Positions 5,586-63,821 of a stretch of DNA of 64,000 nt are shown here, one piece after another. The translations under genes and the position numbers were made by a program. Position 1 is the stretch's first letter. The number at the start of each line of letters is the position of its first letter. The DNA is from Bdellovibrionales bacterium. GTDB taxonomy: Bacteria; Bdellovibrionota; Bdellovibrionia; Bdellovibrionales; JAUICD01. The notes beneath the pieces are model-generated. The model was given only the letters and a program-made list of their open reading frames with translations. It had not been told where the DNA came from and searched no databases. Location of the stretch: positions 235,088 through 299,087 of the forward strand of contig CBDANC010000014.1 of NCBI GenBank assembly GCA_965197425.1, in the 5' to 3' direction.

Positions 5586-7151
5586 ATGAATAGGTTTTTA
5601 AACTTGTTTTTTGTGTTTGTTTTTACTGTTCAAATTTCTTTTGCAAACAGTGAAAGTTGCACTGATGCATTGGAGTCTAATTCTAGCTCTGAGAGGCAAC
5701 TCTCTTCAAATCAATTCAATATTGATTTAGAAAGTATATGGAATGATGCTATGGAAAATGGTGATTTAAAAGGGATACATTTTCTCATACAGCTAATAGA
5801 CAGATCATCACTATCGGATTTAGATAAAGAACTTGCCAGCGAGTTACGCAACTTATTTAACAAAAAATATAGTGAAGGAAACACTATTTTGCACATGGCT
5901 GCCAAGCATGATGATATAGACATACTTTCCTTTATGATAGATCATGGTGCTGATATAACAAGTGAAAACGATTTAAATGAAACACCCTATGATGTAGCAA
6001 AATATTATGAAAACCAATTTTCTATAGATGCCCTGGAAACCGCTATGAACGAAATGCACGAAATTGGTACACTAGAACAAGAGAAGGGGAAAAATAAAGG
6101 GATTGTTCAAACATTTCAAGGTTCAGAACCAATATCCAAAGTAGATGGCCATCTAGAAAGCTATATAGAAGAACAAACCCAACTAGCAGAAAGTGTTAAA
6201 AATAGAATAATTCAACATATTAAAAATCGAGATTTAATGAGGCTTAAGTTTCTTTTTGAGTATTTAAGAAAGAATAACCTGGATATAATTCTCGAAAACA
6301 CAAAACATATTTATATAACCAAATCCTACAAAACAACTTTTCTAATAATGGCTGCCAGGTTGGATGATGTAGATATAGTTGAGTTCCTACTAGATGACAA
6401 ATATCAAAACACTGTCTTAGAAAAGGATAGTCTTGACAAGAGTGTTCTACATGTTGCAGCAAATAATGGTTCGGCAAGAATAACTGAGACTATTTTAGAC
6501 AGCATGGAAGATGAAGATACTTTATATAGTTTGGTTAGTTTAAAAGAAAAGAAAACAGGCAATACTGTATTGCATAATGTAGTTATCAATGATCAATTCA
6601 ATTTACTTTCCATTATGTTGAATAGGTTAAAAAGTGTTTTGACCGAAATTTCTTATAACAAACTTTTGCAAATAAGGAATAATGAATCAAAAACTGTAGA
6701 AGATCTTATGAGAGACAAAAAAATACCTTCTAAAATAATAATTGAATTGAACAACAAACCTATCAACATTCAGACCATGTATGCTGACTATAAGAGAGAA
6801 GAACGTGCTGCTAAGCAAATCGCTGAAGTAGATATAAAGGTGTTAAAGAGAAAACTTAATTATGAATTGAAGTTTAAAGGCAGAAAAGTGAGGCGAATTT
6901 TCCAATCCTTCAACAAAGTGGAGACTAAGCCTTTGTTCAGGTATTCTTTTTTTACAAACATTTTTTGGAAGATACCAGTATCTATTATCTTAAGCCCAAT
7001 TGTTGCAACACTTGCTGTTTTGGCGTCTCCCTGGCTAACATATTATCAATTTTTTTATCATCGTGTATCAAAGAACAATCGTACATATAAAATATCTGAT
7101 CTGGTAAAAATTAAGCCAGATCCACCTGATCTACTAAGTGATATCAACTAA
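5586..7151 (+). CDS. secreted/membrane-anchored ankyrin-repeat protein
   Basis: Signal peptide MNRFLNLFFVFVFTVQISFA; ankyrin motifs (GNTILHMAAKHDDIDILSFMIDHGADI, SVLHVAANNG, GNTVLHNVV); C-terminal hydrophobic hairpin. Confidence 0.85.
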   Translation: MNRFLNLFFVFVFTVQISFANSESCTDALESNSSSERQLSSNQFNIDLESIWNDAMENGDLKGIHFLIQLIDRSSLSDLDKELASELRNLFNKKYSEGNTILHMAAKHDDIDILSFMIDHGADITSENDLNETPYDVAKYYENQFSIDALETAMNEMHEIGTLEQEKGKNKGIVQTFQGSEPISKVDGHLESYIEEQTQLAESVKNRIIQHIKNRDLMRLKFLFEYLRKNNLDIILENTKHIYITKSYKTTFLIMAARLDDVDIVEFLLDDKYQNTVLEKDSLDKSVLHVAANNGSARITETILDSMEDEDTLYSLVSLKEKKTGNTVLHNVVINDQFNLLSIMLNRLKSVLTEISYNKLLQIRNNESKTVEDLMRDKKIPSKIIIELNNKPINIQTMYADYKREERAAKQIAEVDIKVLKRKLNYELKFKGRKVRRIFQSFNKVETKPLFRYSFFTNIFWKIPVSIILSPIVATLAVLASPWLTYYQFFYHRVSKNNRTYKISDLVKIKPDPPDLLSDIN

Positions 7152-38566: not shown

Positions 38567-38958
38567 TATTATCAGTAATAATTGCCCTATCTTTGGAAGG
38601 ACATATATATAATGACATAATCAAAACTAAATCCAAAGAAGAGCTAGGCAGTCTGATAGAAGTATTAGAAAAAGGCAACCTTTATAAAACAGGCTGTATT
38701 GCGGAATTAGCAAAAAATCAATTTCCAACAAATTGTATACATTTTTTAAAGATAATAGAATCATCCAAATATAAAGACAAACTTGGAACTAAAAAAGCCA
38801 AAAGTGAAATAAAAAGCTACTGTGCTAAAAAAGACCTTGTTTTTAAGCTTGAAGGTGGTTCAGATTTAGATGACAGTTTTAAAAAAGAATATCCAAAATG
38901 TTTTGAAAGGTACTCCGAAAAGCTAATGGATATTAAATACAAAAAATCAAAGAACTAA
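38563..38958 (+). CDS. hypothetical Cys-containing small protein
   Basis: 131-aa ORF. ATGA overlap with the previous ORF and abuts uppP. No recognised motif. Confidence 0.5.
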   Translation: MILSVIIALSLEGHIYNDIIKTKSKEELGSLIEVLEKGNLYKTGCIAELAKNQFPTNCIHFLKIIESSKYKDKLGTKKAKSEIKSYCAKKDLVFKLEGGSDLDDSFKKEYPKCFERYSEKLMDIKYKKSKN

Positions 38959-39784
38959 TGTATCCTGACATATTAAAATCCATTTTATTAGGTATAATTC
39001 AAGGAATAACTGAGTTTTTACCAATATCTAGCTCCGGACATCTAACACTAGCACAACATTTTTTGGGTATTTATAAAGAAACAATACAATTTGATATAGT
39101 TGTGCATTTTGCAACTTTGTTGTCGGTATTTACGGTTATGAGAGGAGTTTTAATAAAGCTTTTTTATCTCATATTAGAAGATATAAAGAGTCGAAACTTT
39201 ACTGGTACTGGCCTCCTGCTTTTATATAAAATCATTGTGGCAACAATCCCTGTTGGCTTAGTTGGTGTGTTTTTTAGAGGTAATATAGAATCTCTTTTTA
39301 ACAATCTTACTGTAGTGGCTTTAGCATTTTGCTTTACTGGAATATTATTGCTGTCCACAAAAATTTATGAAAACATTCGAATTCCGTAGATGCCGGAGAT
39401 ATTGAAGATATTAAGGACATAAACTTTATGCAAAGCTTTATTGTTGGGATTTTTCAAATGATAGCCATTATACCTGGTGTTAGTAGATCTGGGACTTCTA
39501 TTGTCGGTGGAATGATGACCAAGATGAGTAATTTAACTAGTGTTTATTTTAGCTTCATTATATCAATACCTGCAATTTTAGGGGCTACGGTGTTAGAAAT
39601 AAAAAAAATGGCCATATCACCATCTGATGTAGACATTTGGTTTTTAGCCGCTGGATTTTTAGCAGCATATATATCTGGTGTTGTGGGTTTGACACTAGTG
39701 GTGAAAATTGCAAAAAACAAAAAACTATTCTACTTTACACCTTACCTTGTTATCTTGGGGCTGATATTATTGATATTTTTTTAA
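38958..39784 (+). pseudogene. uppP: undecaprenyl-diphosphatase UppP/BacA, split by a frameshift near 39380-39390
   Basis: The N-terminal ORF 38958..39389 has GIIQGITEFLPISSSGHL. The C-terminal ORF carries IPGVSRSGTSIVGG in a different frame that is already open from 39389 (DAGDIEDIKDINFMQSF...). Together they are collinear with full-length UppP. Confidence 0.75.
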
Positions 39785-42118: not shown

Positions 42119-42523
42119 TTACTGCGAAATAACGGACATTGCTACCTTGTTTACGCCTGCTTTTTTCAATGAATCCATCACTGAAATAACAACACCATGG
42201 GAAACATTTTTATCAGCAGATATCACGGCGTATATTTCCAAGTCCCCTTCCACTAAATTGTGAACCTTATAGACTAAGTCATCAGTATTTGTACCTTCAC
42301 CGTTTAACAACACAACACCATTTGGATCTATTGAGATATTCAAAGTTGATTTAGCTATTTCCTCTCCTGTACCAGCCTTTGGAAGTTCAATCATAATTGA
42401 AGGTGATATTATCAATGAAGAAGTAAGCATAAAAATTATAAGAACAACTAAAATAATATCTACAAAGGGAGTTACATTGATTGTGGATATTGGTTCATCA
42501 TCCTGATCTAGGCTAGATGCCAA
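42119..42523 (-). CDS. ExbD/TolR-family protein
   Basis: INVTPFVDIILVVLIIFML, with a periplasmic domain ending VVISADKNVSHGVVISVMD. Confidence 0.85.
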   Translation of the reverse strand: MASSLDQDDEPISTINVTPFVDIILVVLIIFMLTSSLIISPSIMIELPKAGTGEEIAKSTLNISIDPNGVVLLNGEGTNTDDLVYKVHNLVEGDLEIYAVISADKNVSHGVVISVMDSLKKAGVNKVAMSVISQ

Positions 42524-42524
42524 A

Positions 42525-43199
42525 TCAACCTCCTGTGTTGTCTTTTACTTTTTTTTGTACGGAAAATTTCTTTTGATAATGATACACTACACAAAATTCT
42601 TTTAAAGCATCCAGACTACTTAAAATATATTTTACTTTTTTTTGAAAAATATTGAAGGCAATAACCGCAGGTATTGCAACAAATAATCCTACTGCAGTTG
42701 CTACTAAGGCTTCTGCTATTCCACTCATAACTGCTTGAGTACTAGACATTGATCCTTCTGCTTGTGCCAAACCTAAATCCTTAAAAGCCTTCATAATTCC
42801 CAACACTGTACCCAAAAGACCAATAAAAGGTGCGTTGGATCCTATGGTTGCAAGTGCAGACAAACCTCTTTCAAAAATAGACTTATTGGTCAATATAAAT
42901 GAATCAAAGGCTTCCCTTATCCCGTCTGGATTTATCTGATCACTAAGAACAATATTGAGTGCTTTTGAATGAAGTGTGTCTTCTGATTTTAAAGAATCTA
43001 AAACATCAAAACTTTTATAGCGAAGTATGTCTCTAATTCTTTCATTCATCCTTTCGCTGTCTTTCCTTAAACTTCGTAGTGTCATTACTCTCTCAATCAT
43101 GACAGCTACACTGTAAATGGACATAACTATTAGCAAATACAGGATTGCCTCCGCACCTCCATTTGCTACTACAAAAAATTTTTCAGTAAGATTAAACAT
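42525..43199 (-). CDS. MotA/TolQ/ExbB proton-channel protein
   Basis: LATIGSNAPFIGLLGTVLGIMKAF, AEALVATAVGLFVAIPAVIAFN. Confidence 0.88.
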   Translation of the reverse strand: MFNLTEKFFVVANGGAEAILYLLIVMSIYSVAVMIERVMTLRSLRKDSERMNERIRDILRYKSFDVLDSLKSEDTLHSKALNIVLSDQINPDGIREAFDSFILTNKSIFERGLSALATIGSNAPFIGLLGTVLGIMKAFKDLGLAQAEGSMSSTQAVMSGIAEALVATAVGLFVAIPAVIAFNIFQKKVKYILSSLDALKEFCVVYHYQKKFSVQKKVKDNTGG

Positions 43200-43288
43200 G
43201 AAAGCTATAGACTCCTGAACCCAAAAATAACATAGTTTAATTTAAGAATGTACAGTTTAAATCTTAAATATATTAAGCTAAACTAAAG

Positions 43289-45061
43289 ATGCATTTGAAG
43301 ATTTTAAAATACATACTATTAACTATATTGCTGACTCAGTCTTCATGTGTGTTTATAAACAAAACCCCATATCCTTCTGTGCTTATAATTGCAATTGACT
43401 CTCTAAAACATGACGACATCTCATGTTCAAGCGTAGATGAAACTAGGCTTTTGTACGGGTTTTATGGATTATGCCAAAACTCATTTAAATTTAACAATGC
43501 TATTACAACTAGTGTGTTATCCGCTCCTGCAATGGCATCTATATTGACAGCTATGTACCCTTATAAACATGGACTAATCCACAACGGAAATCAATTTTTG
43601 TCAGCAGAAGTTGAAACCATACCAGAGCTTTTGATTTCAAAAGGAATCAAAACTAGTTTTTTTTCAGGAGGAGCTCCTATTTGGAGAAAGTTAGGGTTAG
43701 CTCAGGGATTTGAAGTATTTAATGATTACATATCTATTAGCAACGACAGAGTGTTCAGAAAAGCATCTGAAAATGTAAGTCTTTTTCTTTCATGGCTACA
43801 AAACATTAACACAAGCTTTTTTTCTGTACTCTATTTTCCTGATCTACAATTTCCTGATAATTTTAATCAAGCAAGAGAAGAGCATATAGCTTATAGATTG
43901 GAAGAAATTGACGAAGCCTTAGGAAATTTACAAAAAAACTTACAGGAGTTAAACAGATGGAATAACACAATTGTTATACTAGTTGGACTAAACGGTAGAA
44001 CAAAACTAAAACGACCAAATGAACTAGAGCCACTCAAACTTTTTGTTGATAATTTTAAAGTGGCTCTTTTTGTAAAGCCACAATCCAAAAGAAAAGATCG
44101 GGGAGTAAATATATATGTAGAAGATAATGTAAATCTCATTGATTTAGGAAGTTATATTCTACAAGCTTACAATATCACCAATACAAGAGAAGAGCTATTT
44201 CATGAACCAATAGACATAAAAAAAATGTTTGATAATAAAACCATACACCCAACAAAAAAAAGAAAACTTCTAATAGAATCTGCTTGGGGATATTGGAAGT
44301 TAGATGGAAAAACAAGATTTGGACTATTAGAGCAAGAAAAACTAACCCTAAACCAATCTAAAAATTCACAATATGATATTTGGATAGATCGAATGCAAAG
44401 ATCACCAGTGGATAGTGAAAGGTATGAAAGTTATAAAGCTTTAAAGTCTGATTTGGATATGTTTTTGTCAAGCAATGGGCTAGAACAATTTGTATATCCT
44501 GATAACAACATAATTCAAAAATATATGATTGCCTCTGAAATTTTTAAAGATGGGAAAATACTATCAGAACTTGAAGCATATTCCTATGGCAATCCAGAAG
44601 ACATTGAGGCTAAAAATTGGATAGCTTATTGGGCACTAAAACTAAAAAACTGGGAGCTTCTTTTAAGAATGTCTAAAGAGCTTAAACAACCAATATGGCA
44701 TCATGTGGCTTTAACACATTTAAATAGACCGACTAACATTGAAGATCCTTGTTGGGATTTATTAAATTCAGAAAGACAAACAGAGACCAGCTGTAAGGAC
44801 ATAAAGTTTTCAAACTTTGCTTTTTGGATCAAACATGATAAACAAAAATCAACATTAGCCACATATTACAAAAGTATCTTTATAAAGATGTACAAAAAAC
44901 ATATTATTCATGAGAAAATTGCAAGGCTTAATTGGTATAACTATAATATATGGAATGTAGAAAGCACAGGGTACTTAAGACCTTTTTTAGTTGATCTGGT
45001 ACTTTCACTGCCAGAGTATAGAGAATATAGATTGCAAATTTTAGATCACTTAAAACCCTAA
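43289..45061 (+). CDS. alkaline-phosphatase-superfamily protein (type I phosphodiesterase/NPP-like N-domain) with a long C-terminal extension
   Basis: Signal peptide; VLIIAIDSLKHDD and SAPAMASILTAMYPYKHGL resemble the NPP motif (T/S)xPxxxSIxTGxYPxxHG. The 300-aa C-terminal region is unassigned. Confidence 0.6.
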   Translation: MHLKILKYILLTILLTQSSCVFINKTPYPSVLIIAIDSLKHDDISCSSVDETRLLYGFYGLCQNSFKFNNAITTSVLSAPAMASILTAMYPYKHGLIHNGNQFLSAEVETIPELLISKGIKTSFFSGGAPIWRKLGLAQGFEVFNDYISISNDRVFRKASENVSLFLSWLQNINTSFFSVLYFPDLQFPDNFNQAREEHIAYRLEEIDEALGNLQKNLQELNRWNNTIVILVGLNGRTKLKRPNELEPLKLFVDNFKVALFVKPQSKRKDRGVNIYVEDNVNLIDLGSYILQAYNITNTREELFHEPIDIKKMFDNKTIHPTKKRKLLIESAWGYWKLDGKTRFGLLEQEKLTLNQSKNSQYDIWIDRMQRSPVDSERYESYKALKSDLDMFLSSNGLEQFVYPDNNIIQKYMIASEIFKDGKILSELEAYSYGNPEDIEAKNWIAYWALKLKNWELLLRMSKELKQPIWHHVALTHLNRPTNIEDPCWDLLNSERQTETSCKDIKFSNFAFWIKHDKQKSTLATYYKSIFIKMYKKHIIHEKIARLNWYNYNIWNVESTGYLRPFLVDLVLSLPEYREYRLQILDHLKP

Positions 45062-45165
45062 AGGTCTTCCGAACGAGGCAAAAAATAAGGAGGCTTCGCC
45101 TACTTTTTTTTGACGAGTGGTTGTTCCCTGGTAGACCTCACAGCTGATCCATCCTTACATAGCAA

Positions 45166-45840
45166 TCAAAATTCAACTACTCCAAGCCAAAAAGGATTTT
45201 CACCATCTGAAGATAAAATTTTACTAGCATTATCCAAGGTAACCTTTGAAAGGTCTAAATCCATTAGTTGTGGATCAAAATAATTTCCCAACAATAAAAT
45301 TAATTTATCATTTGAAATCCCTTTAATACTACCTGGAATTACATATTCATTAGCATTTAATCCAACCAATTCCAATGGAAGTGGTACTGTCTTATCTTTA
45401 TTTTGGGATTGTACAGATAGAGGAACACATGTTTGGAGTGGAAAAGATCTGTCGTCTTTATAAAGAATTAAACAAAATCCTTTTGTTGAAAACCAGATAA
45501 GCTCATTTTTAGATCTCGCCATGACAAATGTTTCCACTCCACAGCTATATTCATTTTCATTGAATTCTGAATATATTCTTTGTGAGGCTAAAATTATTGA
45601 CATTCTTATGTTGTTTGCCTCCGTAGATAAAGTAGGAATACGAGGAAAAGGGCTGGTAGCACCACTGTCTGCACAAGCTCCCCCGTAATAGTCTACAACA
45701 GAATTTATAAAAGCTTCAGATGCTCCGTTATCACCCCAAACATTACTAACAATAATTAAATTTAACTTCTCATCTAAAAAGACTGTTGGCTTTGGAAGCT
45801 TTACTTTATTTCCTATAAAAGATCGATATTCTATTTTCAT
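45166..45840 (-). CDS. hypothetical protein, possibly a degenerate SpoIIE/PP2C-like fold (weak)
   Basis: Last gene of the FHA operon, with a 4-nt overlap. LIIVSNVWGDNGASEAF ... ELIWFSTKGFCLILYKDD ... DKLILLLGNYFD follow the spacing of PP2C/SpoIIE blocks but lack the usual metal-binding Asp pattern. Confidence 0.6.
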   Translation of the reverse strand: MKIEYRSFIGNKVKLPKPTVFLDEKLNLIIVSNVWGDNGASEAFINSVVDYYGGACADSGATSPFPRIPTLSTEANNIRMSIILASQRIYSEFNENEYSCGVETFVMARSKNELIWFSTKGFCLILYKDDRSFPLQTCVPLSVQSQNKDKTVPLPLELVGLNANEYVIPGSIKGISNDKLILLLGNYFDPQLMDLDLSKVTLDNASKILSSDGENPFWLGVVEF

Positions 45841-47813
45841 AAACCATATTTTTTTAATTTTATTTTAGCTTTTTTCATATACTCACCATCGGGTATATCC
45901 ATTGTTGTAATTTGTTTCCACTTGCCTTTAGCCGATTCTAAATTGCCCATATTCTCTTCCAAAATAGCATCTTGAAATAGTGCTCTGGTTTTCTTTCGCA
46001 ACTCTGCAGTATAACTTGTTATCTTTTCTCTGGATTCTTGATGATTTGGATCTAGATATAAATTCTTTCTTAGATTCAAAATAGCTCTTTTGTAATTTCC
46101 TGTCCTTGCGCTACTATTTGCATTTCTAATATTGGCCTTAATTGTATTACCAATCGAAGATTTTATTTTAGATATTTCTACTTTTGATTTTGCTTTAAGA
46201 TTTTTAGGATCTAAGTAGCTAGAATTTATATGCTTATTATAGGCATCTATAGCATCTAACAATCTGTTTCTTGAATGCAAGTTTTTTGCTTTCTTATATA
46301 AATTTTCACCCATTCTTATACTTACAGCCCGTCTGTTTCTAGAAGCCTCTTGAGATTTTTTATCAGCAATATTTTTGTCTACCTTCTGAAGAATAATCTG
46401 CATTCTTGCATTGTCAGGATCGATAGACGCTACTTCTTCTAGACAACTTTGAACCCCTGATTTATTCAATGACCCCTCAGATAATTTTTCACATCTAACT
46501 AAAATAGACTCAACTTTCTGTTTAAGCATATTTTGTTCTTTTTCCATTTTGACGATTTCTTCTTGTTGCTTCAAGGTTTCAATAGCGCTCAAACTTAAAT
46601 TTTCAATCATTTTAGAATCTTTATAGCCAGGAATCAAATCGTGTATTTTTTGGATCTCTGAAAGAGCAATATTATACTTACTATCCTTATACATCTTATT
46701 GGCCAGTGCGTAGCTATTTATAACAAGCTGTTTTTGCATATCAGTCAGTATATCGAATGGAGTCTTGGTAACTTGACTCTGATTTACAGCTGCAACAGAT
46801 CTATCTTGAGTTTTTGATTTTTCTTCACCTTCCATCAAATAGAACACCACTATTAATATGATAACTGAAGCAACAATTAATACTTTTTTATTTTGTTTAG
46901 GTTTTTGCACTGGAATTCTCACAGCTCCGCCTGCCCCTGATCCATCTGAATATTCATCCATAAAATCAGAAGAACCCGGTGCAATAGCTACAAGCTGCTT
47001 TTCAATGTTTGAATCTTTAAGCTCGAATTGAATGTTTAAAAATTTAACTCTAATCAAACTTCCAGAAACTAATTCAACTTCCCTATTGGGAGTTAAATTT
47101 ACCCCATTTACATTAGTTCCATGAGAACTATTAAGATCAGTTATGTAGTATTTTGAATTATCCTTTCTAACTTCAAAATGCTGATTGTTTAAATATTGAG
47201 AATTTATCTTTACATCACAATTATCTGTTTTCCCAAATATCCATTTGTCGCCATCAAGCTCAACAGTCTTTTTTATCTCTCCAATACTTATGGTTATAAA
47301 TGGTTTTATACTGAAAGAATCCAACTCTAGTTCTTGCGTGACTTCTTCTTTTGACTCCTCTTCTTGATAAAGCTCTTCTTCTTGACAAGATTCTTTCGTA
47401 TGCTGTTCTTGTGATTCTAAAACAGGCTCATTATTTTCATCTTCGCATAAAGATTTTTCTTCATCTAAAGGTAATTCAGATTCTATAGACGACTCCGTCA
47501 TGACACTTTCGTTGGAGGTACTTGCTTCAACTATAAGTTTATATTTGTTTAAGTTAATTTCATAATTTGATTCAGGAATAATAACTTCTTTAACCGTATT
47601 TCCTTCATCATCTTCTAGGCAATCAAACCTAGACTTACAAACAACTTTCCAAGATCCATCTTCAAAAGAAAAAACTAGGTGTTCTCTTGAAATGGAATTT
47701 TCATCTATAACCATATTACAAGATTCTTGTCTTCCAACGGATATAGACTCATCTTCAGTCATATCAACTGATTTTAAGAGTTTGTTTTTTAAATATAAGC
47801 TTAGCTTTCTCAC
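45837..47813 (-). CDS. membrane protein with two cytoplasmic FHA domains, one TM and a C-terminal TPR/coiled-coil region
   Basis: FHA1: SVGRQESCNMVIDENSISREHLVF. FHA2: WIFGKTDNCDVKINSQYLNNQHFEV...DLNSSHGTNVNGV. TM: VLIVASVIILIVVFYLM. The C-terminal half is TPR-like. Confidence 0.8.
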   Translation of the reverse strand: MRKLSLYLKNKLLKSVDMTEDESISVGRQESCNMVIDENSISREHLVFSFEDGSWKVVCKSRFDCLEDDEGNTVKEVIIPESNYEINLNKYKLIVEASTSNESVMTESSIESELPLDEEKSLCEDENNEPVLESQEQHTKESCQEEELYQEEESKEEVTQELELDSFSIKPFITISIGEIKKTVELDGDKWIFGKTDNCDVKINSQYLNNQHFEVRKDNSKYYITDLNSSHGTNVNGVNLTPNREVELVSGSLIRVKFLNIQFELKDSNIEKQLVAIAPGSSDFMDEYSDGSGAGGAVRIPVQKPKQNKKVLIVASVIILIVVFYLMEGEEKSKTQDRSVAAVNQSQVTKTPFDILTDMQKQLVINSYALANKMYKDSKYNIALSEIQKIHDLIPGYKDSKMIENLSLSAIETLKQQEEIVKMEKEQNMLKQKVESILVRCEKLSEGSLNKSGVQSCLEEVASIDPDNARMQIILQKVDKNIADKKSQEASRNRRAVSIRMGENLYKKAKNLHSRNRLLDAIDAYNKHINSSYLDPKNLKAKSKVEISKIKSSIGNTIKANIRNANSSARTGNYKRAILNLRKNLYLDPNHQESREKITSYTAELRKKTRALFQDAILEENMGNLESAKGKWKQITTMDIPDGEYMKKAKIKLKKYGL

Positions 47814-48707
47814 CTAAAACTCTCCCTGGGCTCTTAGCAATAGATTTATCTCTTCTAATCTTGTTCTAGCTTCTTTTGCAAGAGCTCTATTGTTGTTACC
47901 AGTCAATATCAATATTTGTCTATATGCAGATATGGCTCTACTATATTGTCCTTTTTCGTAATAATCATTTGCTTCAGAAAGCGTAGACTGTATCAAATAA
48001 TCAAGCTTTGTTCTAGACTGCATTAAATATCTTTTTGCTAGCACATGATTTGGAAACAATGCCAACGCACCATTAAAATAATCTATTGATCTTACAAAAT
48101 TCTGCTCTCTATAATCTCTAAAGCCTTGAATAAATAAAGCCTGCGCTTCTTTATATTCCAGAGTATTCTTTTTGGTTTTAACCAATGATCTATAATGTTC
48201 TGAAGCTCTCTCTTCTATCGAAGCTAATCCTCTTTCGCTTTCATCTATCACATTGGTACTAGTGATAGCAGTACTTTTATCTTCTCCAGATAATAAAAGA
48301 TAAAAGAGCCCTGCTATCACAAAAATCACAGTATAGAACATTGCCTTTGAGTTGCCTTTTCTATTAGGCATAGAAATGCCTTTATAGCCTGCTATATTAG
48401 ATGTTTTGCTTAAGGCAGATTTGTTAACAAGTTTAAGGTTGGTGTTTCCCAGTTGAATTATAGACTCTGGTTCTAATATAGCATGGCTAGTATCTACACC
48501 ATTTACTACAATTTTATTTGCTGGACTTATTTTTTTTATATTAACGCTTCCAGGCTTTATATTTAAAATTGCGTGTTTTCTGGAAACCTTCACATCATTT
48601 AATATGATGTCATTAAATTTAGCTCTTCCAATTAACACAGAACTAGAGACAAGTTTGTACTCAACTCCTTTATCTTTTCCATTCATTATTTTGATAAAGT
48701 AACTCAC
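47814..48707 (-). CDS. FHA-domain membrane protein with a C-terminal TPR region
   Basis: VLIGRAKFNDIILNDVKVSRKHAIL...NKIVVNGV; TM MFYTVIFVIAGLFYLLL; TPR-like YYEKGQYSRAISAYRQIL. Confidence 0.82.
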   Translation of the reverse strand: MSYFIKIMNGKDKGVEYKLVSSSVLIGRAKFNDIILNDVKVSRKHAILNIKPGSVNIKKISPANKIVVNGVDTSHAILEPESIIQLGNTNLKLVNKSALSKTSNIAGYKGISMPNRKGNSKAMFYTVIFVIAGLFYLLLSGEDKSTAITSTNVIDESERGLASIEERASEHYRSLVKTKKNTLEYKEAQALFIQGFRDYREQNFVRSIDYFNGALALFPNHVLAKRYLMQSRTKLDYLIQSTLSEANDYYEKGQYSRAISAYRQILILTGNNNRALAKEARTRLEEINLLLRAQGEF

Positions 48708-50245
48708 AAGCTTTCCTCAAATTCTTTACTTATAGTAATAACAAAATATTTAATTGCCTCAGTTCCACCTATAGCAACTATCTTAATGTTATATTCTATA
48801 GAACTAAATTCTAACTTATTATTAAATATCTGTTCAGGAGATTCTTCAGATTGACTTATTAAATCCTTAACATTCAACAAAAGCGACTGATCATTAATCT
48901 CATCAATACTTTGATTTACCAAAATGCCATCATTTGCACCTATCAGATTTTCACAAGTTTGATTTATAGCAACAATAACACGGCTGTTGTCTATAATCAT
49001 CGTTGGCGTTTCTGTGGAGTTAACCAAATTATTTGCCTCATCTACTGGTAATAAACTAAATGATTGACCTACATCTTTATCTTCTTCGCTAATTCTAGAA
49101 AGGGAAGAATTAATGTTGGTGATCAATTTTTGTAGAATTGGAAAGTTGAAGTTATGCGAAACTTGTTTTTCACCATCTTTAAGAGCGCGATCTAACTGTT
49201 GATTTATATCAACAATTGGCTTTTCTACAAGGCTCATCAACATGACAAATAATACAAAACCAAGAACTATTGCAAAAGCTAGTACTTGAACTACAAGCCT
49301 TATTACATCATCCATTTGAAAAACCTTTCTTCCCATATCATAGATAATAATTGCAAAAGAGCTGACAGACAGAGTTCCTGTATTAGGGTTCAGCTGTTGT
49401 ACTGGTATACTCACGCCTATTGTGGAGCTGTTTAGCACTTCTAATGTTGAGCTATTATTCCTTCTTGCTTTGTGAACAAAAGGAAGATCAGGATCAGTTC
49501 CACTGAGTTTACTTGGTGCTATTACATGACCATCAGTTGCGCTAATAATAAGAGCTTCTTTTACACCTTCAGATCTTGTTTCTTCTATGGAAAAAGAATT
49601 TTGTAGCCCCTTGGAACTAGCATTTTTAAACCTATTTGCTAATCGCTGTCCAATGTCATTAGCTCTAAGCAAACTTTCTTGTTGAATACGTTCTTTGGAT
49701 ATGTTGATCATTGGTATTGCAGACAAAACTGTTACCATAACAACATAACAAGCTATAAAACATCCAATCACCCACTTAAATTCTCCCCACTCAGCAATTT
49801 TGTAAATTCCCTGCATAAAAATGTTTTCTAAAGATGCCTTTAAACCGGTTGGCTTTAGTGTTGAGGATTCCTTTGATTCAAAATTTTCATCATTTGAAAA
49901 TTCTTCAGAGTAAGATTGATTTGGCATTTCATTTGATATTTGACTATCTTGTCTAATTGGGGTTCTGGCAAATTCTAAAACGGTTTGATGAACTGATATC
50001 TTATCCCCAGCTTTTATATTGGATCGTTTTATTAAAACTCCATTTACGAAAGTACCATTTCTAGAGCCTAGATCTGCTATGAAAGCTGTATCAGATTTTA
50101 CAACTACCTGGAAATGTTTCCTGGACATCGATTTTGATTGAATTTGTATATCACTATCCTGCCCACGGCCCACTGTATTTGCTCCTTCTTTTAAAGCAAA
50201 ACGCTCTCCTAAGTTTGGACCACTTATAATTTTAATTTCCCACAT
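48704..50245 (-). CDS. FHA-domain sensor-like protein (FHA, TM, extracytoplasmic domain, TM, HAMP, PAS-like; no catalytic output domain)
   Basis: NTVGRGQDSDIQIQSKSMSRKHFQV...DLGSRNGTFVNGV; two TM segments; HAMP-like EKPIVDINQQL...FNFPILQKLITNINSSLSRI; PAS-like TPTMIIDNSRVIVAINQTCENLIG. The start is either the ATG at 50245 (MWEIKI) or the one at 50260. Confidence 0.8.
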   Translation of the reverse strand: MWEIKIISGPNLGERFALKEGANTVGRGQDSDIQIQSKSMSRKHFQVVVKSDTAFIADLGSRNGTFVNGVLIKRSNIKAGDKISVHQTVLEFARTPIRQDSQISNEMPNQSYSEEFSNDENFESKESSTLKPTGLKASLENIFMQGIYKIAEWGEFKWVIGCFIACYVVMVTVLSAIPMINISKERIQQESLLRANDIGQRLANRFKNASSKGLQNSFSIEETRSEGVKEALIISATDGHVIAPSKLSGTDPDLPFVHKARRNNSSTLEVLNSSTIGVSIPVQQLNPNTGTLSVSSFAIIIYDMGRKVFQMDDVIRLVVQVLAFAIVLGFVLFVMLMSLVEKPIVDINQQLDRALKDGEKQVSHNFNFPILQKLITNINSSLSRISEEDKDVGQSFSLLPVDEANNLVNSTETPTMIIDNSRVIVAINQTCENLIGANDGILVNQSIDEINDQSLLLNVKDLISQSEESPEQIFNNKLEFSSIEYNIKIVAIGGTEAIKYFVITISKEFEESL

Positions 50246-50564
50246 AGAGCTTATCTCCAACAGAAATCTTATCAGACATTCCTACATTCATTTCAAAAAC
50301 GGATGAAGTCCCTATGATTGGCCACACAACACGCCAAGGTTTTAAATTTTTATGAATTTTTTTAACCAAAAGAAAGTCATTTACGAATACTACATCTATG
50401 GGAATTCTCATAAAAAATGTATGGATACTATTGCACTTTTGAATCCATAAAATAAAATCCAGTTTGTTAATTCCTAAAAGCCCTCTAACTCTGGATTTTA
50501 AATTACTAGCTTCAACTAGTTTTTCTGTTATGACTAAATTGGTATTTAAGTTTTTTAAAGTCAT
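50232..50564 (-). CDS. DUF192-family protein
   Basis: RVRGLLG, IHTFFMRIPIDVVFVN, SSVFEMNVG...GDKL. This matches the DUF192 pattern as I recall it. Confidence 0.7.
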   Translation of the reverse strand: MTLKNLNTNLVITEKLVEASNLKSRVRGLLGINKLDFILWIQKCNSIHTFFMRIPIDVVFVNDFLLVKKIHKNLKPWRVVWPIIGTSSVFEMNVGMSDKISVGDKLYVGN

Positions 50565-50567
50565 CTT

Positions 50568-51467
50568 CTATCCGCCACCAGAAATAAATTGCAGAATAAC
50601 AGGGCCAAATACCATAATAAATACAGCTGGTAAGATAAACATCATAAGAGGTAAAAGTATTAGCTGAGATGCTCTAGCACCTGCTTTCTCTGCTCTAAGA
50701 AGTCGCTCAAGTCTCATTTGAATGGATTGTTGCTTTAAAACTTCACCAACACTGGAACCACTTGCTTCTGCATCAACTACAACAACCACAAAACTTGTAA
50801 CCTCTGAAATGTTTAACCTATCTGCCATCGCTCTTAAAGCTTCCGAACGCGAAGAACCTATTTTTATATCTTTTAAAACTACACGCAGTTCATCAGCTAA
50901 AACTGAGTTTTCTGCCTTATCTACAACCCTTTCAATTGCAGTTATAAAATCCATACCTGCTGCTTGAGTTGAAAGTGCCAAGAGATCTATGAAAAAAGGA
51001 AGGTCATTTATTATTTGTTTAGCCTTTTTCTTTTTAGCAGAGTCAACATGTAACTTGGGAAAATAAAATCCAAGAAGCCCTAATCCCATTATCACCACAG
51101 GGCTATATCCAAGCTCTAAAGTAAAGTTAAGAAGCACCAAAAGCATGGGAAACAATAGTCCCCATAGTATTTGCATTCCTATAAATTCATCTTCATTTAA
51201 TTCCCCAGATAGTCCTGCAGACATTATATTTTTTTTAATGCTTTGACGGTATTTTTTAAGCTCTACCTTTTTTACCAACGAAAGACAAAACTTATGAACT
51301 ATTGGACGAGATATTTCTATAAACTTAGACTTGGATTTATCGGGTTCATCTCCACTTGTCCAGGACAGATCATCTACACTACCATCACCTGAAATAAACA
51401 CATTAGATATGAGATAGATGCTAAGGCCTATCATTAACAGACCACCTAGCAGCATTAACTCTCCCAC
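50568..51467 (-). CDS. TadC/TadB-like type II secretion system F-domain platform protein
   Basis: INDLPFFIDLLALSTQAAGMDFITAIERV, ELRVVLKDIKIGSSRSEALRAMADR, RAEKAGARASQLILLPLMMFILPAVFIMVFGPV. Confidence 0.85.
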   Translation of the reverse strand: MGELMLLGGLLMIGLSIYLISNVFISGDGSVDDLSWTSGDEPDKSKSKFIEISRPIVHKFCLSLVKKVELKKYRQSIKKNIMSAGLSGELNEDEFIGMQILWGLLFPMLLVLLNFTLELGYSPVVIMGLGLLGFYFPKLHVDSAKKKKAKQIINDLPFFIDLLALSTQAAGMDFITAIERVVDKAENSVLADELRVVLKDIKIGSSRSEALRAMADRLNISEVTSFVVVVVDAEASGSSVGEVLKQQSIQMRLERLLRAEKAGARASQLILLPLMMFILPAVFIMVFGPVILQFISGGG

Positions 51468-51655: not shown

Positions 51656-52315
51656 TTATGATCCCAAATAGGTCAATGTGAATGTATCTACAAAGTGATT
51701 TTTTTGATCTAACACTTGAATGACTATTTCGCTTTCGGGTCTTAAAGACTCCTCAATTCTCATGTTAGTTCCGAAGTAAAAAAAGCTCTCAATGTCAGGG
51801 TTTGCCGAGTATAAAAATCCAATTTTAGAGTTTCTAATTACTTCTACACCGTCGATTGTCATTACATATTCTATATAATAATCATTATAATCTAAAATAT
51901 TATTAGGTCGATTACGACGAGATGTCTGTATTAGAAACTGATCTCCCAATGGTACTGTGGTGATTTTTTCACACACTTCTTCTTCAGTTAAGTGAGAGTA
52001 ACCTCTGTACTGAGGAACCAAATAGCTCATTATTGTAGGAGAACGATCCTTTATAAATGAAATCATAAGGTTTAGAGATTCACAGCTTTGTTGAGAGCTA
52101 CTATCACCAGGAAGTTCTGAGTTAATTATATCTACCCATTCAGACACTATTTCTGGAGTAAAGTACTTAATCCTTGTTTTTCCATCCACACCGGTAGCCT
52201 CTTTGTGGCTCAACAAGAAAGTTTATCCTACATCGTTGTAGGGAATGTAAAAGAAGTCTCTATAGTCACAACCTACTAAGATAAATAGACATAACAAAAA
52301 AATTATCTTTTTCAT
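51656..52315 (-). pseudogene. lipoprotein gene interrupted by an in-frame TAA at codon 31
   Basis: The ATG at 52315 gives MKKIIFLLCLFILVGCDYRDFFYIPYNDVG, then TAA (52225-52223). The same frame continues as TFLLSHKEATG... (track ORF 51656..52216). Confidence 0.6.
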
Positions 52316-52524: not shown

Positions 52525-53490
52525 GTGTCAAACTATCTATGGCTGATAATGCCACCAGAAATTTCTCATAAACTTGCACCATATGCTCTAAAAATTTTAA
52601 GTTTTTTTAGACAAAATCAGGATTACCACTGGAACGAAACTTCCTTTAAACATCTAAAATTTAAAAATCCCTTAGGGATCGCAGGGGGGGTAGATAAGAA
52701 CGCAAAAAACATAAAACATTGGCCAAAGTTTGGAACCGGATTTTTAGAAATAGGGACTATAACACTTAATCCACAAAAACAAAATCCAGGTAAAGTTTTA
52801 CTTAGAAAAAATAAAAGTCTATGGAATCATCTAGGGTTTCCAAATGATGGAGCAGAAAAAATAATCAAAAGTCTAGAGCATAAACCAGACATCCCTCTGT
52901 TTGTAAACATAGGAAAAAATAGAAATACACCAAACGAAACTGCTAAATCAGAGTACAAAAAACTAGCTTATAAGTTTTTAAATTTTGCAGATGCATTTGT
53001 GATAAATGTATCAAGTCCTAACACAAAAAATTTAAGAAATTTACTAGACCCAAATCATCTAAAACTAATTCTTTTAGAAATAAAAAATGTAATCTCATCT
53101 AAAAACCCCAAACCAATCATACTAGTCAAACTAAGCCCTGATATGGAAGATAAAGAGTTATACTCAATACTAGATATTGATATTACAGATGGATGGATAC
53201 TTACAAACACAACCTTAAGTAACTCACCTCCTTTTCCTGCTGGTTTTGGTGGAGTGTCTGGCCAAATGCTAAAATCCAAATCAATAAACATGCTAAAAAA
53301 AACCGTAACTTACTTGGGAGATAAAAAGAAAGATAAACTAATAATATCATCAGGAGGAGTTATGTCACCTGAGGATGTGCTGGAAAGATGGAAGATAGGA
53401 GCAAATTTAGTACAAGTTTACTCAGGTCTTGTATTTTATGGACTGAACTTTTTCAAAGATACCATGGATATCTACGAAAGCCAAAGCTAG
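52525..53490 (+). CDS. pyrD: dihydroorotate dehydrogenase (quinone), class 2
   Basis: LKFKNPLGIAGGVDKN, FLEIGTIT, NVSSPNT, GGVSG, SSGGV. Confidence 0.9.
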   Translation: MSNYLWLIMPPEISHKLAPYALKILSFFRQNQDYHWNETSFKHLKFKNPLGIAGGVDKNAKNIKHWPKFGTGFLEIGTITLNPQKQNPGKVLLRKNKSLWNHLGFPNDGAEKIIKSLEHKPDIPLFVNIGKNRNTPNETAKSEYKKLAYKFLNFADAFVINVSSPNTKNLRNLLDPNHLKLILLEIKNVISSKNPKPIILVKLSPDMEDKELYSILDIDITDGWILTNTTLSNSPPFPAGFGGVSGQMLKSKSINMLKKTVTYLGDKKKDKLIISSGGVMSPEDVLERWKIGANLVQVYSGLVFYGLNFFKDTMDIYESQS

Positions 53491-54641
53491 TCCTCTTTGC
53501 TTAAAAGCTCGATGTAATTTTCATAAATAAAAGTTTTATTTTTATATCTTCCCGTCAGTTCCTTTACTATAGCTAGTTCTTCCAAAGTTCTTAGAGATCG
53601 CAAAATGGTTTGCACCGAACATCTTGTACTCTCTACAATATGCTTTGTATCAGATATAGGGTTCTTTTTTATATAGCTGAATGTGTTTAAAACTCCAACG
53701 GTACCCTTCTTTGCATCCTTAATCTTTTTTTCATCCTGCTCAAAGAGTGTTACAACACTTTGAGCCGTATGAGATGCTTGTTTGGAAGTTTCATAAATTC
53801 CAGTTAGAAAAAATTTAATCCATTCTTCCCAATCTCCTGTCATACGTACTTCATTAAGTAAATAATAATATCTATCTCTGTTAATCTTAAAAAATAAGCT
53901 CAAGTAAAGTATAGGATCCTTTAAAAACCCTGCCACACAGAGCATGAAAATAATAAGCAACCTTCCCAATCTTCCGTTTCCATCTAAAAATGGATGTATA
54001 AACTCAAATTGTACATGAGCTATTGCCACCTTTACCAAAACTGGAAGCGGTGTAGTATTGTCATTCAAAAATTTTTCAAATTCCCCAAAACACTCAGCTA
54101 TATTCTCCGGAGGTGGAGGAACAAATTTTGCATTTCCTGGTCTTAGTCCTCCTATCCAATTTTGTGAAGTTCTAAATTCTCCAGGTATTTTTTTTTCTCC
54201 ACGCCCACCTGAAAGGAGTATTTTGTGAATTTCACAAAGTAATCTTCTGGATAGTGGTAGTTCATTTATTTTCTCCAAGCCGTATTCAAGCGCAGATACA
54301 TAATTGGAAACTTCTATGTTATCGTCAGTCATATTTTTTTTACCCAAATTTTTTTCAAACATAAGTAATTCAGATAAAGTAGATTGGGTACCTTCAATTT
54401 GTGAAGATAGTACTGCCTCTCTTTTAGAAAACATGGTTATAAAAAGCGAAGTGTCAGGAAGGTTTGTCCTTATGGCATTTAACTCACCTATGGAAACACT
54501 TGCCTTATCCAACAGATCATAAAATCCCCACACCTCGATCGGAGGAGTTGGAGGTAACGGGTTTGGAACAAAACATCTATAATTTTCCTCACCTGTTAGC
54601 CTTTTAATATAGCTACCAGTTGTTCGCCTAATTCTGCTCAT
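53487..54641 (-). CDS. Fic-family protein (AMPylase-type, with N-terminal inhibitory helix and C-terminal winged-HTH-like region)
   Basis: Fic motif HPFLDGNGRLGRLL; inhibitory motif SSQIEG ([ST]xxxE[GN]); C-terminus RSLRTLEELAIVKELTGRYKNKTFIY. Confidence 0.88.
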   Translation of the reverse strand: MSRIRRTTGSYIKRLTGEENYRCFVPNPLPPTPPIEVWGFYDLLDKASVSIGELNAIRTNLPDTSLFITMFSKREAVLSSQIEGTQSTLSELLMFEKNLGKKNMTDDNIEVSNYVSALEYGLEKINELPLSRRLLCEIHKILLSGGRGEKKIPGEFRTSQNWIGGLRPGNAKFVPPPPENIAECFGEFEKFLNDNTTPLPVLVKVAIAHVQFEFIHPFLDGNGRLGRLLIIFMLCVAGFLKDPILYLSLFFKINRDRYYYLLNEVRMTGDWEEWIKFFLTGIYETSKQASHTAQSVVTLFEQDEKKIKDAKKGTVGVLNTFSYIKKNPISDTKHIVESTRCSVQTILRSLRTLEELAIVKELTGRYKNKTFIYENYIELLSKED

Positions 54642-62435: not shown

Positions 62436-63821
62436 ATGCCTCATAGGTCTTTTTCGTTTTTGTTGGTCTACCTGTTACCATTAAGTATATCTTGTGCAAG
62501 TTTAGGTAAAACAAAGCAAGGTGTTCATTTTTCTAATTTATCCACAAGAAAGATGGCTTCCATCAAAGTTAAAAATAAACCTATTTTTAACAACATAGTC
62601 AGCAAGGATCTGAATAGAGCTCAAAAGCTGACAACCTTAAACAAACTTTTAAACAATCCTTTTACTAAAACTTTTGCCAATGATGATACGAACAGGGGCA
62701 GGAAATTAAAGTACACTGCTACTCCTAGCGATGATCTCCTTGTTACAGCGGCACAGGAAGGTGATTTAAACAGGGTCCGTGAGTTGATTGAAACTGGAGA
62801 TCATGCTGATAAATATGATGAAGCTCTTATTGCGGCAGTAGCAAATGAGCATTTAGAAGTTATGAGTGAATTAATCAAAGCTGGAGCAGATCCCAATGCG
62901 ACAAATTCAGATGGTTTTACTGCTCTTATGATCGCATCTGTTAGTAATCGTTTAGACATAGTTAGAGAATTGATTAAAGCAGGTGCTGATGTCGATTTCA
63001 GTACGACCATAAATGATGGGAATTTACGCAATGTCAGCGTTCTTATGATTGCATCCAATAATGGAAGTTTAGGAGTAGTTCGAGAGTTAGTAGCTTCTGA
63101 TGTAAGTGTTCATGCAACAGATTCAGATGGGGACACTGCTATTATATATGCCATATTGAAGGACCAACTAGAAGTAGTCAGGGAGCTAATAGAGGCTGGA
63201 GCAGATTTGAGCGATAGAAATTCAAATGGCTTTACTGCTCTCATAGTAGCATCAATAGAGGGACATTTAGAAATAATAAGAGAGCTGATTAAAGCAGGTG
63301 CAGAAATTGATGCAGCAGATTCAGATGGATTTAACTCCCTCATGGCAGCAGCAATGATTGGACACTTAGAGGTTGTTCGAGAATTAATTAAGGCCGGAGC
63401 AAATGTTCATGCAACTGACACTGACGCAGACACTGCTTTGGTATATGCAATAATAGGCGATGGGAATTTAGAAGTAGTAAGAGAACTTATTAAAGAAGGT
63501 GTCGATGTCAATGCAGCAAGTTTGTTGAGCCTTATAACCCCCTTAATGAGAGCAACATTTGCAGGACACTTAGAGGTTGTTCGAGAATTAATTAAGGCCG
63601 GAGCAAATGTTCATGCAACTGATGATGATGGAGACACTGCCATTATATATGCAGCACTCGGTATGGAATTAGAGTTGGCTCGTGAGCTATGTAGGAATGG
63701 AGCTGTTTTCAATTACAGTATATCTCAAACAGCAATTGGGTATGGAGTACCGCAGAGTTTCATTGAAGAAATGTTTCGCGTATGCGACACAAGAATTGCT
63801 AGGAGGAGGTCAAGCTTCTAA
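62436..63821 (+). CDS. ankyrin-repeat lipoprotein
   Basis: Lipobox LPLSISC, AAGGAG SD, and about 10 ankyrin repeats of the consensus GHLEVVRELIKAGA.V.A.D.DG.TAL. Confidence 0.88.
   Translation: MPHRSFSFLLVYLLPLSISCASLGKTKQGVHFSNLSTRKMASIKVKNKPIFNNIVSKDLNRAQKLTTLNKLLNNPFTKTFANDDTNRGRKLKYTATPSDDLLVTAAQEGDLNRVRELIETGDHADKYDEALIAAVANEHLEVMSELIKAGADPNATNSDGFTALMIASVSNRLDIVRELIKAGADVDFSTTINDGNLRNVSVLMIASNNGSLGVVRELVASDVSVHATDSDGDTAIIYAILKDQLEVVRELIEAGADLSDRNSNGFTALIVASIEGHLEIIRELIKAGAEIDAADSDGFNSLMAAAMIGHLEVVRELIKAGANVHATDTDADTALVYAIIGDGNLEVVRELIKEGVDVNAASLLSLITPLMRATFAGHLEVVRELIKAGANVHATDDDGDTAIIYAALGMELELARELCRNGAVFNYSISQTAIGYGVPQSFIEEMFRVCDTRIARRRSSF

Follow-up and report, generated by a model that had tools for sequence, protein, structure and literature searches.

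Six coupled genes around a TadC-type protein

The 64,000 nucleotides of Bdellovibrionales DNA considered here (GenBank assembly GCA_965197425.1, contig CBDANC010000014.1; this whole stretch is called the window below) carry on their minus strand six genes, g1 to g6, for a TadC-type platform protein, a DUF192 protein, three membrane proteins that have four FHA domains between them and a protein with a PP2C fold (Table 1). Judged from their overlapping and abutting frames, the six are predicted to be one transcript. Between g1 and g2 there is a gap of 3 nt, g2 and g3 overlap by 14 nt, g3 and g4 by 4 nt, g4 and g5 abut, and g5 and g6 again overlap by 4 nt, which is exactly the set of minus-strand genes with overlaps or gaps of 0–3 nt that had been described in the original prediction, made by a model from the letters of the window. 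A scan for promoters and terminators around the operon gave sites no more frequent than in shuffled sequence, so the boundaries of the transcript are placed by gene spacing only. As to where decoding begins, for g3 the likely start is the ATG at 50245, to which an alignment of 36 homologs points and with which the 513-amino-acid (aa) database protein P0001 agrees, and the database version of g1, P0121, begins 4 codons later than the frame given here.

What do the six genes specify? The assignments to T2SSF, DUF192 and FHA with which the prediction began all hold as Pfam profile matches. That of g1 is to T2SSF (7e-19), hydropathy gives it at least three transmembrane helices, and its homologs carry the JGI name ‘tight adherence protein C’. 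That of g2 is to DUF192 (5e-10); the N-terminus is devoid of a hydrophobic stretch throughout the g2 family, no assigned function for DUF192 was found in the searchable literature, and a sequence search of the PDB yielded only 3m7a, at E 0.21. FHA is matched by g3 at 2e-17 (63.7 bits), by g4 at 5e-11 (43.2 bits) and, in two stretches, by g5 at 8e-22 (78 bits), the cutoff being 20.7 bits, and g4 also matches Yop-YscD_cpl (4e-19) and TPR_2 (3e-8). By hydropathy there are two transmembrane helices in g3 and a single one in each of g4 (residues 122–140) and g5 (residues 311–329), all of them C-terminal to the FHA domains and with basic residues just before, so that the FHA domains are placed in the cytoplasm, on the N-terminal side of their membrane anchors as had been proposed.

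The architecture of g3 is best seen in an AlphaFold2 (AF2) model (predicted local distance difference test, pLDDT, 80.7) in which the FHA domain is followed by a disordered linker (residues 104–137), a long transmembrane helix, a periplasmic alpha/beta domain (233–308), a second transmembrane helix, two helices at the position of a HAMP domain and, at the end, a PAS-like domain (405–512), in keeping with the expectation that this protein has no enzymatic output. The model is matched best in Foldseek by the sensor part of a WalK histidine kinase model (E 3e-15, 383 columns), and the FHA domains of FhaA, GarA, OdhI and DgcB are also matched, at about 1e-10. With the FHA domain of Rv0020c (PDB 3po8) that of g3 has a target-normalised TM-score (template-modelling score) of 0.92, and it superposes on FHA domains that bind phosphothreonine (pThr), among them that of DgcB of Bdellovibrio bacteriovorus. 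The Pfam HAMP and PAS profiles gave no match to g3 at E up to 0.1, so HAMP-like and PAS-like are here fold-level calls: what was originally proposed for this part of g3 is upheld as a likeness in fold by the WalK-like model.

Other identities for the FHA proteins were tried and dropped. The NCBIfam SctD model, relevant to a SctD/YscD identity, scored 24.8 and 27.3 bits where its cutoff is 86 and covered only the FHA-like N-terminal part; the matches to TagH of the type VI secretion system (T6SS), to GltG and to FhaB span the FHA domain only and are far under cutoff, FhaB/FipA being the best partial NCBIfam matches at 32–58 bits against a cutoff of 125.

Table 1. Positions of the operon and its downstream neighbours in the window, and of the tad genes that follow the cluster in three related loci (L handles denote loci fetched from relatives)
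Feature	Sequence	Position	Strand	Length (aa)	Description
g1, TadC/KilH-type platform protein	window	50568..51467	-	299	single T2SSF; inner-membrane
g2, DUF192 protein	window	50232..50564	-	110	without predicted signal peptide or transmembrane helix
g3	window	48704..50245 (likely gene; open reading frame 48704-50260)	-	513	predicted FHA, transmembrane, periplasmic alpha/beta, transmembrane, HAMP-like, PAS-like
FHA domain of g3	window	49958..50248	-		model residues 5-101
g4	window	47814..48707	-	297	FHA, transmembrane, periplasmic TPR; predicted Bd0473 ortholog
g5	window	45837..47813	-	658	FHA, acidic linker, FHA, transmembrane, long periplasmic helical/TPR-like domain; predicted Bd0474 ortholog
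g6	window	45166..45840	-	224	predicted cytoplasmic PP2C-fold pseudophosphatase; predicted Bd0475 ortholog
Sulfatase/phosphodiesterase-like, membrane-anchored	window	43289..45061	+	590	Pfam Sulfatase 1e-13; convergent
ExbB	window	42525-43199	-		Pfam MotA_ExbB 2e-33
ExbD	window	42119-42523	-		Pfam ExbD 2e-27
tad genes after cluster	L026	12012-17779
tad genes after cluster	L019	7707-13001
tad genes after cluster	L018	17009-21605

The tadC locus of Bdellovibrio and the other Tad genes

Full-length homologs of g3 number about 96, and those that bear a name are all from Bdellovibrionota metagenome-assembled genomes (MAGs). The scan of the genome collection had an FHA motif as its sole pattern, and among the 80 loci that it listed about 50 are unrelated FHA proteins and from other phyla; B. 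bacteriovorus is not among the FHA-motif loci listed and was reached by way of a TadC search. Gene order was scored in the 32 fetched loci (L001–L031 and L083) where the contig was long enough, and the order T2SSF, DUF192, FHA, FHA, FHA-FHA is kept in 32 of 32 wherever the contig suffices, DUF192 being the second gene in every one of them. The g1–g5 arrangement is far beyond chance, and the neighbourhood whose conservation in relatives had been named at the outset as a thing to check is indeed conserved in the Bdellovibrionota loci.

One of these loci is L083, from a Bdellovibrio sp. Beside a divergent Maf gene it has a T2SSF protein of 302 aa, a DUF192 protein of 115, FHA proteins of 556 (FHA), 380 (FHA/TPR) and 680 (FHA-FHA/TPR), a 227-aa protein, then a convergent sulfatase-like gene of 603 aa and, beyond it, ExbB and ExbD. 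Over positions 42119–51467 of the window nine genes correspond to L083 in order and orientation, and the best match of each is its positional partner, at 29–57% identity: 57% over the full length between g1 and P0237, the first gene of that locus, 49% for g2, 31% for both g6 and the sulfatase-like protein, and 43% and 45% for ExbB and ExbD. The upstream genes of L083, DivIVA to Maf, count out to Bd0464–Bd0469 in the table of Duncan (see below), so its TadC is Bd0470 and its operon Bd0470–Bd0475, and from this count and the shared order the operon of the window is taken to be the ortholog of the Bd0470–Bd0475 ‘tadC locus’ of B. bacteriovorus. The two have the same six genes in the same order and of similar lengths, with sulfatase-like, ExbB and ExbD genes likewise downstream, and g6 and the Bd0475 type are both without catalytic PP2C motifs. 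They differ in sequence to the extent just given, in that Maf is replaced in the window by an orphan open reading frame (ORF), in that g4 is about 85 aa shorter, and in that the second FHA domain of window g5, unlike that of the Bd0470–Bd0475 type, is without the Arg, Ser and Asn pThr residues.

For this operon there are published functional data. In transposon sequencing (Tn-seq) the predation fitness is 0.002–0.03 for all six, Bd0470–Bd0475 (Duncan et al. 2019 mBio, PMC6561027, supplement). A transposon mutant of tadC (Bd0470) shows no attachment, killing or prey rounding, and one of Bd0474 attaches, with no killing or rounding (PMC6561027). In the same supplement Bd0471 is an uncharacterised conserved protein, Bd0472–0474 are FHA proteins and Bd0475 has a fold match to serine-phosphatase / stage II sporulation phosphatase (PMC6561027). 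Bd0470–Bd0475 are one operon (Abulude et al. 2025, PMC12034629), Bd0474 has two cytoplasmic FHA domains and an extracytoplasmic TPR domain and binds the TPR domain of the predation-essential Bd0075, as confirmed by two-hybrid, and a contact between Bd0473 and Bd0475 is predicted by AF-Multimer with an interface predicted template-modelling score (ipTM) of 0.60 (PMC12034629). According to a preprint, tadC in B. bacteriovorus lies apart from tadB and the main tad locus, next to FHA/TPR/PAS proteins, TadC-mCherry is at the invasive pole with RomR, and the link of the machine to the neighbouring signalling proteins is left by its authors as future work (bioRxiv 10.64898/2026.07.08.737194). The operon can thus not be called an uncharacterised FHA-gated module, as had been offered, for it is already in the literature, though its mechanism is still unsolved.

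The second parallel is with Myxococcus. The Tad of Bdellovibrio has been grouped with the Myxococcus Kil system, and by reciprocal best hits Bd0470 and KilH are orthologs (Seef et al. 2021 eLife, PMC8460266). Directly before KilH come an FHA+TPR protein and an FHA protein that is PrgH-like, the neighbours of KilH being MXAN_4648/4649 with MXAN_4649 annotated PrgH-like; KilD is also FHA+TPR, and the ATPase KilF has an FHA domain (PMC8460266). As in the window, a KilH-type platform is flanked by FHA proteins, and Kil further resembles the Bdellovibrio-type system in being spread over several loci, FHA-rich and devoted to contact-dependent predation. There are differences: KilF has its FHA domain at the N-terminus, whereas the ATPase of Bdellovibrionota relatives forms a fusion with TadZ and in the window there is no ATPase; the Kil clusters list no DUF192 or PP2C-like gene and the window operon has both; and KilH of Myxococcus adjoins KilG (TadB), which in the case of the window locus would be elsewhere. 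The likeness to Kil and to Bdellovibrio Tad loci, which the original prediction had offered with a hedge, is sound, given the Bd0470–Bd0475 orthology and the FHA neighbours of the Bd0470 ortholog KilH.

Is the platform gene then on its own? In the window, it is. Its ORFs of at least 100 aa include no kinase, TadA, secretin, prepilin peptidase, Flp or canonical PP2C, and six-frame motif scans of the 64 kb detected no Flp, Hanks-kinase HRDxKxxN, TadA Walker A or DGxGG motif, just as the earlier reading of the letters had reported for Ser/Thr kinase, TadA, secretin, prepilin peptidase and Flp. Of canonical Tad components only tadC is present, and the rest of the 64 kb is housekeeping or unrelated. 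With the canonical tad/cpa loci of Aggregatibacter and Caulobacter the window shares the single-T2SSF TadC-type protein, but its tadC is without flp, tadV, rcpCAB, tadZ, tadA, tadB and tadD-G, and those loci are without FHA, DUF192 and PP2C genes.

Distant relatives of the operon, on the other hand, adjoin TadE-like, rcpC, rcpA and tadZ/tadA genes (and tadV in one), as in canonical tad. In L026, an Oligoflexia MAG, and in L018 and L019, divergent ‘Bdellovibrionales’ MAGs, the FHA/PP2C cluster is followed directly and on the same strand by tad genes. Those of L026 include Peptidase_A24 (tadV, 5.5e-12), RcpC (1e-20) and a secretin (1e-13), two homologous small ORFs of which one has a weak Pfam TadE match (8e-4) that is under threshold, and a TadZ domain of ParA/MinD type; what continues from this domain on its C-terminal side looks, by eye, like the N-terminal region of TadA-type ATPases. 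A TadE-like gene, RcpC, secretin and a TadZ-TadA fusion as in L026 are present in L018 and L019, and in all three the ATPase gene, which begins with the ParA/MinD (TadZ) domain, lacks an FHA domain. This is the fusion type of the atypical TadZA hybrid described for B. bacteriovorus (bioRxiv 10.64898/2026.07.08.737194). L026 has a prepilin peptidase of its own, and B. bacteriovorus is reported to be without one.

In the Bdellovibrio-type clade the operon is flanked by housekeeping genes. The parsimonious reading would be that there was one ancestral FHA-equipped Tad locus, that it later split and that the window has the detached half, and the FHA/PP2C module would then be no chance neighbour and instead an ancestral, phylum-wide and integral part of a non-canonical Tad system. 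The idea of a lone TadC in a split relative of known systems thus survives as to the split and falls as to a free-standing platform, the cluster being contiguous with tad genes in L018, L019 and L026. That contiguity, in three distant lineages, goes some way towards the trivially split locus that the original prediction had feared; the split is judged non-trivial since the FHA/PP2C module is integral to that Tad system and conserved in it.

The same loci bear on the possibility that the FHA and PP2C genes are an independent envelope-signalling module that merely shares the tadC transcript and has as its output, for example, gliding, cell-wall remodelling or cyclic di-GMP. The Bd0474 mutant, attaching without killing, is of a different phenotype class from the tadC mutant, the confirmed partner Bd0075 is not a Tad protein and the other partner, Bd0475, is only a predicted one, and ExbB/ExbD-type genes are conserved nearby, all of which would suit such a module. 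However, the TadC, DUF192 and FHA genes are in the same order, overlapping or abutting, in all 32 loci, L018, L019 and L026 embed the operon with other tad genes, KilH has FHA neighbours and the Kil ATPase itself has an FHA domain, and independence of this sort is to be regarded as highly improbable.

Ligand residues of the FHA domains and the fold of g6

In g3, Gly-Arg, Ser-x-x-His and Ser-x-Asn-Gly are invariant in 31/31 homologs. In g4, Gly-Arg and the Ser of SxxH are present in 28/28 and the His in 24/28. In the first FHA domain of g5 all 24 sequences have the Gly, Arg and His, 22 of the 24 have the Ser of SxxH, and the Asn-Gly loop is degenerate. The window copies of g4 and of this domain both carry Gly-Arg and SxxH. 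From these counts the pThr-binding residues of three of the four domains would be under strong constraint. The second FHA domain of g5 is canonical in 22 of its 24 relatives and has in the window R195K, S209N and N231H; in L001 and L003, the closest relatives fetched, it is still canonical, and in L002 it has degenerated independently.

The identity of g6 was less readily apparent. It has no match in Pfam (PP2C, SpoIIE and PP2C_2 included) or NCBIfam, its copies in L083, L003 and L002 likewise have none in Pfam, and a word-indexed homolog search recovered only 6 relatives, so that it took a family profile, a structure model and profile-profile comparison to connect it with PP2C. A profile of the 19-member family compared with PDB sequences identified the PP2C tPphA (E 0.002). 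In a Foldseek search with the AF2 model of g6 (pLDDT 74; predicted template-modelling score, pTM, 0.77) the top 50 in the PDB are all PPM phosphatases, the best of them again tPphA (E 1.8e-10, TM-score 0.65), and they include PstP, the T6SS regulator PppA, RsbX, SpoIIE and the inactive PP2C domain of RssB; hhalign against five real PP2Cs from unrelated loci gave E 4e-4. The metal-binding motifs NED, DGxGG, VGDS, SDG and DNxT are replaced in window g6 and in the whole Bdellovibrio-type clade, L083 included: at the RxxxED/DGxGG/xxDG/DN positions window g6 has KPT, SNVWG, LLGN and NPFW, none of which is conserved in the 19-member clade. The degenerate PP2C/SpoIIE-like protein first proposed from block spacing is borne out in its fold and in the substitution of the catalytic Asp positions.

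The motifs are present at the same position further afield. In L023, L031 and L026 g5 is followed by a homolog of g6 (hmmsearch 8e-13 to 3.5e-7) whose product retains NED/CED, DGFGG, TDG and D[ND]xT; Pfam PP2C is matched by the L031 and L026 proteins at 29.0 and 31.1 bits (cutoff 20.3) and other distant copies have sub-threshold PP2C/SpoIIE matches, with the position-6 proteins of L017, L018, L019 and L020 intermediate in the state of their motifs. The sixth gene is therefore, as far as motifs predict, an active PP2C in distant lineages and a pseudophosphatase in the Bdellovibrio-type clade. Active-looking and dead versions have in common an insert between alpha1 and alpha2 (residues 58–79 of window g6) that is found in window g6 and the position-6 genes of L017, L019, L023, L026 and L031 and that ordinary PP2Cs are without. 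Its consensus is D-x-[ED]-[AV]-T-x-P-F ... L ... A-N, with an invariant Asp, Thr and Phe (D58, T62 and F65 in the window, which reads T62-S-P-F65), and such a Thr, followed by Phe at +3, might be a docking motif for FHA domains.

A candidate phospho-dependent scaffold and its setting

How might these proteins work together? We consider it fairly probable that the locus, taken whole, is the tadC locus of the Bdellovibrionota and the detached half of a Tad system of Kil type, with an FHA phospho-scaffold around TadB/TadC. The input would be g3, in form a histidine-kinase-style sensor that is without the kinase and has a canonical pThr-binding FHA domain instead. As bitopic connectors, g4 and g5 would with their periplasmic TPR or helical arms reach envelope partners such as the ortholog of Bd0075, and with their FHA domains dock partners phosphorylated on Thr by a kinase presumably encoded elsewhere; candidate partners are the TadZ-TadA motor, loops of the platform and their own linkers. 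Together g3–g5 would form a phospho-dependent scaffold around TadB/TadC that sets when and where the Tad machine is activated after prey contact, a role that resembles that of the FHA proteins which gate type VI secretion. Ancestrally g6 would have been a PP2C eraser, and now it is most likely a non-catalytic binding partner or regulator of the FHA proteins. Since the tadC and Bd0474 mutants are of different phenotype classes, g5 may act after attachment, when the machine switches to prey remodelling and entry.

Two known systems are instructive by comparison. In the TagQRST-PpkA-Fha1-PppA pathway of the Pseudomonas aeruginosa T6SS, as here, the genes of an envelope machine that contact activates are accompanied by those for an FHA protein and a protein of PP2C fold, and the course would be similar, from an envelope signal to phospho-dependent recruitment of an FHA scaffold; the analogy is of mechanism only. 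The window locus differs from it in being without a Hanks kinase, in having FHA proteins that are membrane-anchored with periplasmic domains and a PP2C-fold protein that is by its motifs inactive, and in that the machine is a Tad one. The actinobacterial cluster fhaA-fhaB-pstP-rodA-pbpA-pknA-pknB likewise has FHA proteins, one of them membrane-anchored, and a PP2C near an envelope machine, but there kinases belong to the cluster, the phosphatase is active and cell-wall growth is what is served.

Several things weigh against a phospho-scaffold of this kind. The second FHA domain of window g5 is without its Arg/Ser/Asn triad and g6 is, from its sequence, catalytically dead, so some part of the module, at the least, works independently of phosphate chemistry. 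The Pfam model of the YscD cytoplasmic domain, which is not phospho-binding, scores the FHA domains about equally. Neither in the window nor in published work on the operon is a Ser/Thr kinase or a phosphorylated target identified, and Pkinase is matched by nothing in the window and is not among the top 25 families when 132 flanking proteins from 13 relatives are tallied. The scaffold leaves DUF192 without a part, the 64 kb seen do not show the rest of a Tad machine for the genome of the window, and the functional data are all from B. bacteriovorus, whose proteins are only 29–57% identical to those of the window.

Some of these points would be accommodated if the FHA proteins were purely structural, a ring or alignment layer of SctD/PrgH type in a Tad envelope complex or a stand-in for TadD/RcpB, independent of phosphate and with no kinase-phosphatase signalling in the clade. 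Such a role would go well with a Yop-YscD_cpl score that is at least that of FHA for g4 and similar to it for g3, with the PrgH-like annotation of MXAN_4649 beside KilH, with the lack of a kinase in the window or any fetched flank, with a g6 whose motifs are those of a dead enzyme, with the retention of g5 in the window though its second FHA domain has lost the pThr triad, and with the binding of another envelope protein by the periplasmic TPR domain of Bd0474. However, invariance of Gly-Arg, of the Ser of SxxH and, in g3, of Asn-Gly in three of four domains at phylum-level divergence is hard to account for without ligand binding, the NCBIfam SctD scores are 25–27 bits where 86 are needed, and the apparently active PP2C in the operon of basal lineages implies a phosphorylation cycle, at least ancestrally. 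The structural role, though the main rival, is disfavoured by the invariant ligand residues and the active-looking basal PP2C, and is considered unlikely; it and phospho-dependent scaffolding are not mutually exclusive.

Within the phospho-scaffold there is scope for a more particular role for g6. AF-Multimer already pairs Bd0475 with Bd0473, and it could be that g6 has turned from eraser to ligand or regulator, the exposed insert loop, once phosphorylated, docking on an FHA domain of the operon as a self-contained phospho-switch that gates the Tad platform. This is quite unlikely as it stands; were it so, an ankyrin-rich lineage of small genome could have retuned the module for a different target cell.

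What of the surroundings of the operon? The orphan ORF in the place where relatives carry the divergent Maf is of 186 aa (51656–52216, minus strand) and lies on the strand of tadC, 188 nt upstream; having no domain match and no homolog in any related locus, it was dropped as a member of the operon. On the other side, the sulfatase-like gene is just downstream of g6 in at least 11 loci of the Bdellovibrio type (L003–L005, L007, L009–L012, L015, L016 and L083) and is part of a conserved synteny block, with no functional link to the operon implied. An ExbB/ExbD pair accompanies it in the window and L083, as is probably also the case in L007, L010 and L012, and the relevant passage of Duncan's Tn-seq table goes from Bd0475 straight to Bd0874. 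In the two nearest chromosome-scale relatives, L001 (3776–5011) and L002 (2328–6015), the flanks of the operon have transposases (Transposase_mut, IS66, ISL3 and DDE_Tnp_1), which points to rearrangements going on around the operon in this lineage.

Further away in the window is a small Ras/Arf-like GTPase of 194 aa (3838–4422, plus strand), directly after recR, that is possibly of the MglA kind. The invasive pole of B. bacteriovorus, where TadC is sited, is organised by MglA and RomR. The gene for BacA/UppP (undecaprenyl-pyrophosphate phosphatase) is split between plus-strand ORFs at 38958–39389 and 39428–39784, which match profile positions 2–131 and 148–257, and this could be due to a frameshift, a pseudogene or an assembly error. 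Ankyrin-repeat proteins are encoded at 4604–5221 (minus), 5586–7151 (plus), 7170–9314 (minus) and 62436–63821 (plus), and a Fic/DOC protein at 53487–54641 (minus), in a genome of 32–38% GC. This ankyrin/Fic set and the small contigs of relatives, unusual for a Bdellovibrio-like organism, hint at interaction with eukaryotic cells.

Has the module then been turned in this lineage to a eukaryotic host or a non-predatory lifestyle, and no longer serves prey invasion? For this one could cite the four ankyrin-repeat proteins and one Fic within 64 kb, the small genomes or contigs of relatives with g3 64–100% identical, the low GC of the lineage and chromosome-scale contigs of only 1.6–2.6 Mb in relatives, the loss of the pThr triad from the second FHA domain of g5, which came about separately in the window and in L002, and the replacement of the upstream Maf by the orphan ORF of 186 aa. 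Yet none of the six genes is broken, their coupling is tight and the residues invariant in the family are otherwise kept, and such repurposing, very unlikely in our estimate, would at the level of molecular mechanism be compatible with the phospho-scaffold preferred here.

Without the Tad/Kil machine bacterial predators cannot hold, breach and enter their prey. The window adds no new system to what is known of it, the locus being a further case of a published and mechanistically unsolved operon. What is new is comparative: the ancestral contiguity with other tad genes, the decay of the phosphatase and the constraint on the FHA residues, in so far as each can be read from relatives, sharpen the question of signalling control over the Tad machine.

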